Under the pieces are notes generated by a model that saw only the letters and a list, made by a program, of their open reading frames with translations, made no database searches and was not told where the DNA came from. A DNA stretch of 64,000 nucleotides from Eledone cirrhosa (lineage: Eukaryota), in assembly GCA_964016885.1 (NCBI GenBank), contig OZ024765.1, forward strand, positions 5,518,001 to 5,582,000, written 5' to 3'. This document shows positions 4,175 through 58,580 of this stretch, piece by piece. Every line of letters begins with the position of its first letter. The first letter of the stretch is position 1. The translations under genes and the position numbers were made by a program.

Positions 4175-4337
4175 TAGACTGGACACTTTCCTGTTGACAA
4201 GTGTTTTTAGGCCTCATATCATGTTACCTTATTTTATCTGATGAGAACACAATTTTTGTCCCAGGATGATGTTGTTTTCGAAATGCGCATAATAAAATAT
4301 ATGGAACTTTTTTAACCATCTTTTAATTTCTTCTTTT
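4175..4337 (+). mobile_element. Hammerhead-bearing Penelope-like relic, family B (single arm), between (TA)n tracts
   Basis: tattttat-CTGATGA(4238)-stem II-GAAA(4280)-tgcgca-TA-ataaaata; homologous to 57008-57413. Confidence 0.75.
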
Positions 4338-4362
4338 ATATATATATATATATATATATATA

Positions 4363-4536
4363 CACTGTAAATGTGGTTGGTGTTAGGAAGGGCATCCAGC
4401 TGTAGAAAACCCGCCAGACAGTCCTATACGAGCAAGACAATCACTCTTGCCTCAAGTGGGAAAACCCCCGTCCAAACCCATGCAAGCGTGGAACACGGAC
4501 GTTAAACGATGATGATGATGATGATGATGATGATGA
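4363..4536 (+). mobile_element. SINE/RTE-type 3' tail fragment ending in (GAT)n
   Basis: 'ggttggtgttaggaagggcatccagctgtagaaa...acccatgcaagcgtggaa...ggacgttaaacgatgatg' is shared with many copies and with the RTE 3' UTR at 53665-54000. Confidence 0.8.
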
Positions 4537-4557
4537 TATATATATATATATATATAT

Positions 4558-4863
4558 ACAATATTAAATAAATGGAAAACTATATTTATAAAACCATATC
4601 TATTTCATTATATATATTTCGGGGATATCATATTAACAATATGCTATGCCTTCATCAGACATTTTGCACATTTTGTCTGATGAAGGCATAGCATATTGTT
4701 AATATGATATCCCCGAAATATATATAATGAAATAGATATGGTTTTATAAATATAGTTTTCCATTTATTTAATATTGTAAATATACTCCAAATATTTGTCG
4801 AGTGCTTTTATATCAGTTATAAATATTTACTAGTTGTAACCCAACAATTTTAAATATAACTTT
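4558..4863. mobile_element. Fold-back hammerhead element, family A copy 1
   Basis: Inverted arms 4558-4661 / 4674-4777; + hammerhead 4670-4733; GAGTGC at 4800; (TA)n on both sides. Confidence 0.85.
4670..4733 (+). ncRNA. Minimal type I hammerhead ribozyme motif (family A)
   Basis: attttgt | CTGATGA | agg-cata-g-catatt-gtt-aatatg-a-tat-cccc | GAAA | tatata | TA | atgaaat; stem I pairs with two G-U wobbles. Confidence 0.75.
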
Positions 4864-6129
4864 ACATGTATATATATATATATATATATATATATATATA
4901 CAAATATGCTTAGATTTGTGTCTGCACATATTTTTCACATTGTGTGTGCATATATATTTGGGGGGGTTGTTCCAGAGTCACAAAGAGTATACCCCTCCAC
5001 CACCACCACCACTAACCCCCCCAACCACCACCACCACTACTCCCCCCACCACCACTACCCCACCCCACCACCACTACCCCACCCCACCCCTCCTACCACC
5101 ACCATCATCATCCCAAGACCTCATTTCTGCTTGATGGTTGTCAGATATTAGGGCACTGGTTCCTTGATGGTGTCACACTGCACCTAAAGACCCCACATAG
5201 GGGTGGCTGGTTGTATATATGTTTCATGTGAGTGTGTGTATGTATATATATATATACACACACAAATACATGTATGCATATTCACATACATGCATGCATA
5301 CATATATTCACAAATACACATACATACACACATAATTACATACATACATACATATATATATATATATATATATATATATATACAAACATATATATACACC
5401 CATTCATACACACACATTCATACAGATATATACATACATATACACACATACATACATACACACATACATATCCACATATATGTATATACATTCATACATA
5501 CATACACATACATACACGCATAAACATATATACACACATACACACATATACATACACACATACATACATCACACATAGATACATACACACACACACATAC
5601 ATACATACATACATACATACATACACACATACATACATACATCACACATAGATACATACACACAAACATACATACATACACTCACATATCAATATATACA
5701 CACATACATACATACACACATACATCACATAGATACATACACACAAACATACATACATACACTCACATATCCATATATACACACATACATACATACACAC
5801 ATACATCACACATAGATACATACACACAAACATACATACATACACTCACATATCCATATATACATACATACATACACACATACATCACACAGATACATAC
5901 ACACAAACATACATACATACACTCACATATCCATATATACACACATACATACATACACACATACATCACACATAGATACATACACACAAACATAGATACA
6001 TACACACTCACATATCCATATATACACACATATATATACACCCATTCATATTGCCTATATATATCAAGTTACACCTTTCTCTGTAGTTTCTAATGTCTAA
6101 TATTTTCTTATTGGTCTCTGTGACTATGG

Positions 6130-6965
6130 GACTGCCACCACCACTACCACTACCACCATACCACTGCCACCATACCACTACCACCATACCACCATACCAC
6201 CACCATACCACTGCCACCACCACCACCACTACCACCATACCACTACCACCATACCACCACCACCACCACTACCACCATACCACTGCCACTGCCACCATAC
6301 CACTGCCACTACCACCATACCACTGCCACTACCACCATACCACTGCCACCACCGCCACTACCACCATACCACTACCACCATAACACTGCCACCACCACCA
6401 CCACTACCACCATACCACTACCACTACCACCATAACACTGCCACCACCACTACCACCATACCACTACAACCACCACCACCACCATACCACCGCCACTACC
6501 ACCATACCACTACCACCATAACACTGCCACCACCACCACCACTACCACCATACCACTACCACTACCACCATAACACTGCCACTACCACCATACCACCACC
6601 ACCACCACTACCACCATACCACTGCCACTGCCACCATACAACTGCCACTACCACCATACCACTACCACCATACCACTGCCACCACCGCCACTACCACCAT
6701 ACCACTACCACCATACCACTACCACCACCACCATACCACTACCACCACCACCATACCACTGCCACCACCACCACTGCCACCACCATCATACCACTGCCAC
6801 CACTACCACCACCACCACCATACCACTACCACCACCACCATACCACTGCCACTACCACCATACCACTGCCACCACCACCATACCACTGCCACCACCACCA
6901 CCACCACCACCACCACTGACACCACTACCACCACCACTGACACCACTGACACCACTACCACCACC
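6130..6965. repeat. (CCA/CTA/CCATA)-rich compound microsatellite
   Basis: Direct reading. Confidence 0.95.
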
Positions 6966-7467
6966 TACAGCCCCCCCTTCCATGTTCTCACACACCCTCT
7001 CTCCATCACCTTACCCTCCATGTAACCCCCAGTCCAACCATTAACCCACCCCTCACCTCATCATCTACCCGTCGACACCCGAACATCTACCTGACTACCC
7101 ACCCTTCATCCTACCATCTACCCCGATTACCCACTCTTCTCCCCTCTCCATACACCCCCTCGCCCGACCATCTACCCCGACTACCCACCCCCACCCGACC
7201 ATCTACCCCGATTCTCCACTCCCGACCATCTACCCCGACTATCCGCCCCACCCTACCCTGTCTACTACAAGATCCTGGGGTGGAATGGGGTGGGTGTAAC
7301 TGAGCCGCAACCCAAACCGATTGCACCCAGCTGAGGGTACATGCAGAAATTAGTTTGTGGAGACAAGAAGGGGTGGGGTGCTGCTGTGTGGGGTAGGATG
7401 TCATGGTGATGAGGAGGAGGAGGGGGGGGGATGAGTAGACATCATTACCATCACTGTTACAAACTTT

Positions 7468-56432: not shown

Positions 56433-57007
56433 TTGTTTTAGATTTTACAACTATGTCTTGTTAATGCTGTCTCATGTGGTACAGGATGTTAAATGTTATT
56501 ACACCAATTAGTGTAATTTACACATCATCATCATCATCATTATCATCATCATTAGTTGTCTAATTAGTCTGAGCAGCTAATTAAGTGAACTGGTTTCATT
56601 TGTCAATTTCTTCTTCTCCTCCTCCTGCTTCTCCCCTCCTCCTCCTCCTTCTCCTCCCCTCCTCATCTCCATCTCCTCCCCTCCGCCTCTCCTTCTCCTC
56701 CCCTCCGCCTCTCCTCCTCCCCTCCGCCTCTCCTTCTCCTCCTCTCCGCCTCTCCTCCTCCCCTCCGCCTCTCCTCCTCCCCTCCCCCTCTCCTTCTCTT
56801 CTCCTCTCCCCTTCTCCACCCCCCCCCCCCCAGTTTCCTGCTTCCATCCACCACATCAGTGGTATAAACAACAATCTTGCCTGGACTTGTGACTCGGAGT
56901 GTGACTTTCTAGGTGCAACTCCCAAGGTCATTTGTGACTGAAGGAGGTCTTTACCGTGTGTGTATATATATATATATATATATATATATATATATATATA
57001 TATATGT

Positions 57008-57413
57008 AGGAGGTGAGTTATATTGTAGCACAATAAAGCAATGCAAATATCGGATAAGAAGCACTCAACAGTTTATAGGACTGGAGTATAAATAATATAA
57101 GATGAAAAGATGGTTAAAAGAGTTTCATGTATTTTATTATGCGCATTTCAAAAACAAATATCATCATGGGCTGATATTTGCGTTCTCATCAGATAAAATA
57201 GGGAGACATGATATGAAGCTTAAAAAACACTTGTGAGCAGTGATTTATGTTGATTTAACACTTCACTGCTCGCAACTGTTTTTTAAGCTTCATATCATGT
57301 CTCCCTATTTTATCTGATGAGAACGCAAATATCAGCCCATGATGATATTTGTTTTTGAAATGCGCATAATAAAATACATGGAACTCTTTTAACCATCTTT
57401 TCATCTTATATTA
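57008..57413. mobile_element. Fold-back hammerhead element, family B
   Basis: Arms 57092-57243 / 57263-57413; + motif tattttat|CTGATGA(57314)|gaacgcaaatatca..tgatatttgttttt|GAAA|tgcgca|TA|ataaaata; GAGTGC at 57061-57066 (-). Confidence 0.85.
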
Positions 57414-57443
57414 TATATATATATATATATATATATATATATG

Positions 57444-57848
57444 GAAAGTTATATTTAAATTGTTGGGTTACAACTAGTAAATATTTATAACTGATATAAA
57501 AGCACTCAACAAGTATTTGGAGTATATTTACGATATTAAATAAATGGAAACTATATTTATAAAACCATATTTATTTCATTATATATATTTCAGGGATATC
57601 ATATTAACAATATGCTATGCCTTCCTCAGACAAAATACAATATAGACAGTTTTATAGATAAATAGATTTGACATACCGTTCAACATCGACTTGTATTTAC
57701 GGTATGTCAAATCTATTTATCTATAAAACTGTCTATATTGTATTTTGTCTGAGGAAGGCATAACATATTGTTAATATGATATCCCTGAAATATATATAAT
57801 GAAATAAATATGGTTTTATAAATATAGTTTCCATTTATTTAATATCGT
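57444..57848. mobile_element. Fold-back hammerhead element, family A copy 4 (CTGAGGA core)
   Basis: Core at 57749 (+) and its mirror on the left arm; (TA)n flanks. Confidence 0.85.
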
Positions 57849-58026
57849 ATATATATATATGTGTGTGTGTATGTATATATACATACATGTATGTATATAT
57901 ACATACATATATATATATAATTGGTGTTGGATGCTTAAAGCATCCGTATGTGGTGGGCCGTTTGAGCACTCGATGCTCTCATAGAGCAGAGTATGATATC
58001 ACAGAAAATCTGTTTCGTAGAATCAA

Positions 58027-58108
58027 GACGTATCTGAGGACCTTGCGATTTTCAGACCACATCGATCGTGCCTCGAGCTGGTCGCCAGAGAAACGATTGT
58101 AATATGTC
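58027..58108 (+). ncRNA. Type I hammerhead motif (family L) within element ~57920-58155
   Basis: gacgtat | CTGAGGA | long stem II (gcga...tcgc) | GAAA | cgattg | TA | atatgtc. Confidence 0.7.
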
Positions 58109-58175
58109 CAATAAATTCCATTCGTCGCAACACTGATTCTCTTTTTTTCTGTGATATATATATATATATATATAT

Positions 58176-58580
58176 GGAAAGTTATATTTAAATTGTTGGG
58201 TTAACAACGAGTAAATATTTATAACTAATATAAAAGCACTCAACAAGTATTTGGAGTATATTTATGATATTAAATAAATGGAAACTATATTTATAAAACC
58301 ATATTTATTTCATTATATATATTTCAGGGATATCATATTAACAATATGTTATGCCTTCTTCAGACAAAATACAATATAAACAGTCTTATAAATAGTCTTA
58401 TAAATAAACCTACCAAATCAACCTCCCAAATGCAAGTCGATTGAAAGGTATGTCGTATCTATTTATTTATAAGACTGTTTATATTGTATTTTGTCTGAAG
58501 AAGGCATAACATATTGTTAATATGATATCCCTGAAATATATATAATGAAATAAATATAGTTTCCATTTATTTAATATCAT
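58176..58580. mobile_element. Fold-back hammerhead element, family A copy 5 (CTGAAGA core)
   Basis: Core at 58495 (+) and its mirror 'tcttcag' on the left arm; (TA)n flanks. Confidence 0.85.

Follow-up and report, generated by a model that had tools for sequence, protein, structure and literature searches.

A 64-kb stretch of the Eledone cirrhosa genome (contig OZ024765.1, positions 5,518,001 to 5,582,000 of the forward strand; called the window, whose own numbering is used throughout) carries many small islands with minimal type I hammerhead ribozyme motifs. We consider it about 85% probable that most of these islands are truncated 3' ends of coding Penelope-like elements (PLEs), with one non-coding unit among them, and that the nuclease and reverse transcriptase (RT) of the elements themselves likely placed them in (TA)n. 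Each family of islands was searched for in the genome and then walked upstream from its longer copies (the family letters A to L are labels of this analysis). Judged from sequence, seven of the ten families traced are 5'-truncated 3' ends (pseudo-long terminal repeats, pLTRs) of autonomous PLEs, six of the Hydra clade and one of Neptune type; family J is non-coding, and families E and F had no linked open reading frame (ORF). The elements are new members of a known system, and the new leads are a hairpin near the mapped copy ends and an unusually high copy number.

The motifs were scanned with a strict type I descriptor, consisting of a CUGANGA or UUGANAA core, at least 4 pairs in each of helices I and II, a near-palindromic helix III, and UH. 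The window gave 20 matches, versus a mean of 0.05-0.1 (maximum 2) in dinucleotide shuffles (60 shuffles at each of three block sizes), and the complement-only control gave none with the same descriptor. The shuffle comparison proposed in an earlier note on this DNA thus separates the real sequence from chance. Of the 15 cores listed in that note, 11 pass the descriptor (4238, 4677, 25117, 40758, 46153, 48948, 55543, 57314, 57749, 58034 and 58495), and the other four do not, being deviating copies of real families. The core at 15452-15507 reads UUGAUGA, with CUGAUGA found in 12 of 25 copies of its family, G; at 15722/15730 the basal pair of helix II is U-U and helix III is longer; the motif at 49274 is of the U3-A8 type with a shortened loop, and its mirror at 49220 passes the descriptor; and at 52212 the helix II region spans 84 nt and helix I contains a mismatch that is absent from 18 of 25 family J copies. 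The strict match at 17695 (minus strand) is probably a chance match. The 15 cores sort into nine families, or ten when 48948 is split from family A, which agrees with the roughly ten families claimed; six of the cores belong to family A or its close relative. Beyond that list, cores were found at 15919 and 52717 (both minus strand), and the window has no fewer than two families more than the 15 sites represent, D and L; the window copies of L are truncated within helix II. Cores with partial hammerhead-like surroundings (CTGANGA) were also seen at 23225-23330 and 51720-51850 (both minus strand) and at 11409-11446; for these cores, 23275(-), 51812(-) and 11429(-), no clear family was found among the collected loci.

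Covariation was assessed across all collected loci with the segment between GAAA and UH left free. This segment was self-complementary in 219 of 263 distinct motifs, versus 65 after letter shuffling, and in 27 of the 32 C3-G8 sequence clusters versus 2.5 expected, with 13 different palindromes; the clusters were formed by single linkage, by which 160 motifs were chained into one. Helix III therefore covaries, and pairing is kept while the stems differ, as had been claimed. With a CUGANGA/GAAA/UH core, three helices and covariation, the motifs have the type I layout, and together with the ORF links given below this bears out their description as PLE-type hammerheads, for which self-cleavage is predicted. 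They resemble the minimal metazoan PLE hammerheads described in PMC4209133, which are type I with a palindromic helix III and occur as many families per genome, mostly as single truncated copies, with opposite-strand pairs 100-700 bp apart and with the U3-A8 core variant already reported in Schistosoma PLEs. An Rfam scan of the window returned 697 matches; among the 150 matches listed, all were microRNA models on repeats and hairpins.

The upstream walks led from the islands into ORFs with RT and GIY-YIG domains in seven families, of Hydra type in A, B, C, D, G and K and of Neptune type in I. Such ORFs had been suggested as a check, and their presence contradicts the proposal that the islands are a set of non-coding retroelements, which fits family J (core 52212) and fails for the seven ORF-linked families. 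A tblastn search with the Hydra ORF gave no match in the window, consistent with the earlier statement that no PLE enzyme is encoded there. In family A, the ORF lay about 1.4 kb upstream in all six extended loci (the longest of 30), separated by an untranslated region (UTR) of about 1.4 kb; an intact 737-amino-acid frame is present in locus L044, and L043 has a hammerhead on either side of the ORF. Whole elements were found for families B (L265) and K (L465), and these two, like L043, are pLTR-ORF-pLTR tandems with the hammerhead in the pLTR. Family C was joined to the ORF end in 9/15 loci, family D to the ORF in 4/20 (L449, L451, L453 and L455), and family G in 2/25 matches (L267 and L268); the frames of D and K are known only in decayed form. 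Family A is considered young since 23 of its 31 central matches were 98-99% identical to the reference copy. The truncated copies are most simply made by the enzyme of their own family.

The family A frame is a single ORF with a telomerase-like RT followed by a C-terminal GIY-YIG domain with a Y(V/I/F)G motif. The best fold match of its protein model (70-row alignment, predicted local distance difference test score 91) was telomerase RT (TERT; E 1.2e-9), and this fold search settled the RT identity of the Hydra ORF, for which the PDB sequence search, like that of Pfam, gave no match. N-termini were compared for families A and B, with motifs RIRWR/SDKTN and RLRWI/SDKTN, respectively, and families A, B, C and G have a CxCx5C linker, with CxxC and CxH at the nuclease end and no CX2-5CxxC. 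These motifs correspond to the definition of the Hydra clade in PMC8557442 (RW(K/R), DKT, CxCx5C, CxxC and CxH), where (TA)n targeting, hammerheads, mirror arms and an Octopus family (Hydra-1_Obim) are also described. The Eledone elements share with that clade the single RT and C-terminal GIY-YIG ORF, the motif set, the pLTR hammerhead, the (TA)n target, and inverted 5'-truncated copies with a tail at one end only. They differ from the description in PMC8557442 in having many more families than the one Octopus entry, units of 3.7-4.9 kb, and tails of 60-110 nt as compared to 30-40 nt. When compared by eye with the published reference sequence, the motifs of the Hydra-type ORF resemble those of Hydra-1_Obim, and no window family has a ribozyme matching that of Hydra-1_Obim; among named proteins, those closest to this ORF are from Argonauta. 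The family I ORF has an RT with YLDD, a Cx4CxxC linker (CGHSNCGTC) and YIGQT, with Pfam matches to GIY-YIG (E 9e-7) and RVT_1 (E 0.0016). Its layout is Neptune-type, as judged by motifs, and the core TTGAAAA was found in 28 of 30 family I loci.

Insertion into (TA)n, as had been claimed for the islands, was seen as a TA run directly after the 3' end in families A (96/110), B (68/79), C (63/75) and K (63/75). The value for family D was only 7/26, where the reference used already ran into TA. About 48% of the window is tandem repeat, and the inverted-repeat search of the window was dominated by (TA)n. This repeat content, the inverted arms and the TA flanks might be taken to indicate miniature inverted-repeat transposable elements (MITEs) or other DNA elements of that kind, or chance motifs in AT-rich repeats; we regard this as scarcely credible, as the islands have unequal arms joined at ragged 5' ends or, in many copies, a single arm, they run into RT ORFs, and the shuffled and reversed controls were near zero. 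MITE identity was rejected on the unequal arms and ragged 5' ends, which are not the matched terminal inverted repeats and fixed length of such elements.

The ends of the copies were then mapped relative to the predicted cut site. Hydra-type copies stop at two fixed points downstream of it, at about +50-57 and +136-144 in family A, +51 and +134 in B, +56 and about +155-164 in C, +55 and +125 in K, and about +28 and +88 in F, with positions blurred by a few bases through TA overlap. The stretch holding both ends is the 5' UTR of the next unit in whole elements. Of 119 inverted pairs, 108 combined a long end with a short one; the pairs of family I do not split in this way. The 5' ends are ragged and lie mostly 40-140 nt upstream of the cut site, with clusters near -124 in B, -113 in K, -42 in F and -72 in I, and in loop II in L; a cluster at -12 in family A was attributed to related subfamilies. 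A cut linear RNA as template was rejected, as the expected pile-up of 5' ends at the cut site was looked for and was absent (only 4 of 312 off-centre copies start within 3 nt of it). The template would have held an intact or re-joined ribozyme, and we infer an uncut tandem transcript or a circle, either of which fits the end data.

These ends suggest a route of insertion in which a tandem or circular transcript would be bound by the RT/GIY-YIG protein, which would nick (TA)n. Internal priming of complementary DNA would take place at either of two sites, lying 28-57 and 88-164 nt downstream of the cut site, and an RCUC...YYGAGY hairpin immediately 3' of each site would likely determine its position. 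Synthesis would cross the intact ribozyme and usually halt 40-140 nt past the cut site, and for this reason nearly every stub would carry a hammerhead; mirror arms would result from priming at both target ends, one at each site. The high density of hammerheads would then be a by-product: copying would soon reach the ribozyme, immediately upstream of the start sites, and in most cases abort shortly beyond it. The likely role of the ribozyme itself would be to trim the tandem precursor RNA, acting as a dimer or assisted by protein, and not to serve as an insertion step; weak cleavage, in dimers or in the presence of protein, is described for related minimal motifs (PMC4209133, PMC11167929). For a Poseidon element in vitro, two internal RT starts bound the genomic tail, the protein cuts both strands of AT-rich DNA, and RNA with a dead ribozyme inserts equally well (PMC11167929). 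The octopod families resemble this element, PAc of Anolis, in the two internal RT starts downstream of the ribozyme, the AT-rich target and the uncut RNA template. Unlike PAc, which starts within the ORF at an AC-rich stem-loop (PMC11167929), both of their ends fall ahead of the start codon, within the 5' UTR, and each is next to an RCUC/GAGY hairpin.

Short stubs or inverted pairs might also re-amplify, with a read-through transcript re-copied by the Hydra enzyme, in which case much of the copy number would be second-hand. Family-specific clusters of 5' ends are what a few short masters would give; these clusters may instead be RT stops at the ribozyme structure or edge effects of alignment, and a long-end stub lacks the following hairpin and under the hairpin model would re-prime only at the short site. 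We consider re-amplification unlikely to be the main source of the copies and prefer truncated synthesis from the coding elements.

The hairpin, RCTC-[stem-loop]-YY-GAGY-RC, was found 0-10 nt 3' of each mapped end that carries it. It is present at both ends in families A, B and K (the K short site is 57966-57992) and at the short site in C, F, L and a family hit by RF00163; ACTC pairs with GAGT at the majority of short sites, and GCTC with GAGC at the long ones. In families G and D, viewed for the first time after the pattern was written, it was seen in two of three continuations each; the third G continuation was cut by the locus end and the third D continuation was interrupted by another repeat. 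Family E has a looser version, and the ends of family I have no hairpin. By eye, the hairpin was also seen in published consensuses of the coral Hydra-2_Amil and the sea cucumber Hydra-1_Ajap (twice) and Hydra-2_Ajap, and less clearly in the copepod Hydra-1_Crog. In an evenly placed sample, the long tails that missed it included two near-matches in A/B-type copies, and most of the misses belonged to other ribozyme families. The words 'hairpin' and 'stem-loop' do not occur in the main text of PMC8557442, and no description of a start-site hairpin was found in the literature searched, which left most subscription journals and Repbase outside. The hairpin probably places the start of reverse transcription. 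We lean slightly towards the wider view that a conserved, duplicated Hydra hairpin (RCUC-stem-loop-YY-GAGY-RC) sets both RT starts from corals and sea cucumbers to octopods, has been copied by family J, and offers a route to 1-4 x 10^5 motifs, about ten times the density in axolotl. Two more RCTC...TTGAGTAC hairpins, at 40217-40244 and 32936-32972 (plus strand), lie outside the recognised families and are possibly further PLE ends.

Family J (core 52212) fits a non-coding, retrozyme-like, head-to-tail unit of about 0.84 kb. Its own 3' end lay directly upstream of the unit start in 12/20 loci with a period of 832-845 nt, and genome-wide there were 31 exact head-to-tail junctions and 285 exact ribozyme 3' halves; the tandems seen were only partial dimers. 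No similarity to PLE proteins was found in the unit, whose longest stop-to-stop frame is 95 amino acids. Each unit has one type I hammerhead with a helix I of 4 bp and the long helix II region, closer to PLE-type variants than to canonical motifs. The J hairpin stands at +60, with only a partial hairpin at the real end. Folded as a circle, the unit gave -227 kcal/mol versus -203 ± 9 kcal/mol for 30 letter shuffles, which is a weak control. Family J would likely borrow the Hydra enzyme. As with the non-long-terminal-repeat retrozymes of PMC7229834 and 10.64898/2026.07.22.740005, it is non-coding and head-to-tail, with one hammerhead per unit and a GC content of 41%. It departs from these in its length (classically about 200-400 nt in PMC7229834, and 51-972 bp in 10.64898/2026.07.22.740005), in forming dispersed partial dimers and not arrays, and in its very long helix II. 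A relative 72% identical to the J unit lies at L007:2368-2857, suggesting a second J-like family. At L272:3189-5543 (minus strand), another intact Hydra-type frame, 43% identical to that of A and with its own ribozyme, lies beside a J copy; it was rejected as the parent of J, being a separate insertion, and ORF adjacency alone was for this reason not accepted as a family link.

Family J also bears on whether the islands in general are small non-coding retrozymes mobilised in trans with circular RNA intermediates. The J anatomy and junctions fit this explanation, no ORF is linked to E, F or L, short copies predominate in every family, and retrozymes derived from PLE pLTRs have been described (10.64898/2026.07.22.740005). 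The seven ORF-linked families, which unlike the retrozymes of PMC7229834 and 10.64898/2026.07.22.740005 are coding, nevertheless continue unbroken upstream into RT and GIY-YIG ORFs, their 5' ends are ragged and not fixed, and none of them showed a tandem short unit in the collected loci. We therefore judge a retrozyme origin of the islands to be improbable as compared to truncation of coding PLEs. Families E, F and L, having no linked ORF, may be non-autonomous. Longer copies of family L elsewhere have UUGAAAA or CUGAGAA cores and a helix III of 6-7 bp, and in whole copies (L291 and L310) this long palindromic helix might allow cleavage as a monomer. Family L was very common, with 149 matches among the collected loci, usually cut inside loop II.

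Several points weigh against the origin of the islands as truncated PLE ends or against parts of the proposed route. The upstream walks of E and F (300-700 bp) ended in decayed or microsatellite sequence with no ORF. Four window motifs that were folded were not better than shuffles (z +0.3 to -1.5), and some copies have cores expected to be inactive. Pfam gave no match in the Hydra-type ORFs, whose placement rests on motifs and the fold match. The units measure 3,890, 3,673 and 4,874 bp, above the <3 kb usual for Hydra, and have long 3' UTRs. Loci were picked by similarity to window copies, which biases the end counts, and the initiation model is borrowed by analogy from another clade. The hairpin pattern was written after the data had been seen, it was present in only 4 of 22 long tails of the evenly placed sample (background 1.5% per 120 nt), and almost no family J copies end at +60 despite the hairpin there.

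Genome-wide abundance was estimated in the 3.0-Gb assembly with sequence patterns, which count matches without enforcing helices I and II. The tight pattern gave 65,204 matches versus 13 in the reversed control, and a wider pattern with 6-nt helix III motifs gave 121,763 versus 1,268. In forty evenly placed 10-kb stretches (400 kb), 38 strict matches were found versus about 1 in shuffles, extrapolating to 277,000 strict motifs in the genome (bootstrap 157,000-404,000). The high copy number claimed for the genome and the very high density claimed for the window are both supported by these counts; strict matches are about 3 times as dense in the window as in the genome sample (20 in 64 kb versus 38 in 400 kb). 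Published counts, with which comparison is rough as descriptors differ, are about 2,000-9,000 minimal motifs per genome (PMC4209133), as compared to at least 120,000 here, and for hammerheads more than 6,000 in a coral and 126,247 in axolotl (PMC7229834), whose genome is listed at 28 Gb (10.64898/2026.07.22.740005). No hammerhead count for a cephalopod genome was found in the literature searched, which left subscription journals largely outside; Penelope is already listed as expanded in coleoids (PMC8967140). The RF00163 (Hammerhead_1) search of the genome returned another hammerhead family above the Rfam cut-off (L031-L040), absent from the window, with the same two-end anatomy and hairpin. 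Abundant families with a 4-nt helix III (GAAC, CTAG or TGCA) and no hairpin were seen in L284, L290, L292, L303, L317 and L319; the latter are perhaps other PLE clades.

Hammerhead-bearing islands of the window. Positions are those of the window; long and short refer to the two 3' ends of the copies.
Feature	Position	Strand	Remarks
Family B, 3' end (pLTR piece) of Hydra-clade PLE	4170..4344	+	core 4238, short end
Family A inverted pair	4551..4871	both	minus arm 4551-4661, plus arm 4670-4871
Family L inverted pair	14777..15010	both	truncated inside helix II, first core half gone
Family L inverted pair, second copy	15206..15387	both	
Family G, Hydra-clade 3' end	15408..15570	-	core UUGAUGA here
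Family F inverted pair	15600..15780	both	cores 15722 minus, 15730 plus; Hydra-type hairpin present
Family D, Hydra-clade 3' end	15810..16160	-	core 15919
Family A inverted pair	24806..25223	both	cores 24999 minus (long end), 25117 plus (short end)
Family L inverted pair, third copy	33106..33294	both	
Family C inverted pair	40583..40968	both	core 40758 plus, long end; mirror 40677
Family E, inverted tail and hammerhead arm	45938..46232	both	core 46153; older family
Close relative of family A (83% identical)	48914..49048	+	core 48948, short end
Family I inverted pair, Neptune-type 3' ends	49066..49423	both	UUGAAAA: 49220 minus, 49274 plus
Family J, 3' part of ~0.84-kb non-coding unit	52120..52471	+	core 52212, hairpin 52374-52409
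Family I single arm	52550..52759	-	core 52717
Family A inverted pair	55161..55649	both	cores 55354 minus (long end), 55543 plus (short end)
Family B inverted pair	57004..57419	both	cores 57192 minus (long end), 57314 plus (short end)
Family A inverted pair	57437..57855	both	cores 57629 minus, 57749 plus
Family K, Hydra clade, inverted tail and hammerhead arm	57917..58156	both	core 58034
Family A inverted pair	58170..58587	both	cores 58363 minus, 58495 plus

In the first family A pair, the minus arm has the short end and core 4658, with helix I lost in part to truncation, and the plus arm has the long end, core 4677 and a hairpin at 4784-4805. The family C mirror at 40677 has G at the cleavage position. 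Other features of the window include an inverted pair of about 115 bp without a hammerhead core (54634-54746 and 54961-55077, 88% identical) and minisatellites at 300-568 (133 bp), 17761-18362 (48), 43611-44815 (48), 55791-56431 (103) and 61328-61731 (about 123 bp), the first of which resembles a dispersed repeat, similar to a short interspersed nuclear element, present in many loci. An intact frame of about 1,180 amino acids at 35591-39220 (plus strand) belongs to a long interspersed nuclear element and encodes an endonuclease, an RT and, at the C terminus, C2H2 fingers; an RTE-type element that has fingers of this kind is reportedly expressed in octopus brain.

The hairpin beside the mapped ends makes the choice of internal start sites by PLEs directly testable in vitro. 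The main text of a 2026 repeat annotation of Octopus vulgaris has no mention of ribozymes or Hydra (PMC13282606). Stubs of hammerhead-bearing PLEs are a major, probably misannotated, class of repeats in octopods. The octopod lineage is known for heavy adenosine-to-inosine editing, and, speculatively, the many inverted pairs could form double-stranded RNA.

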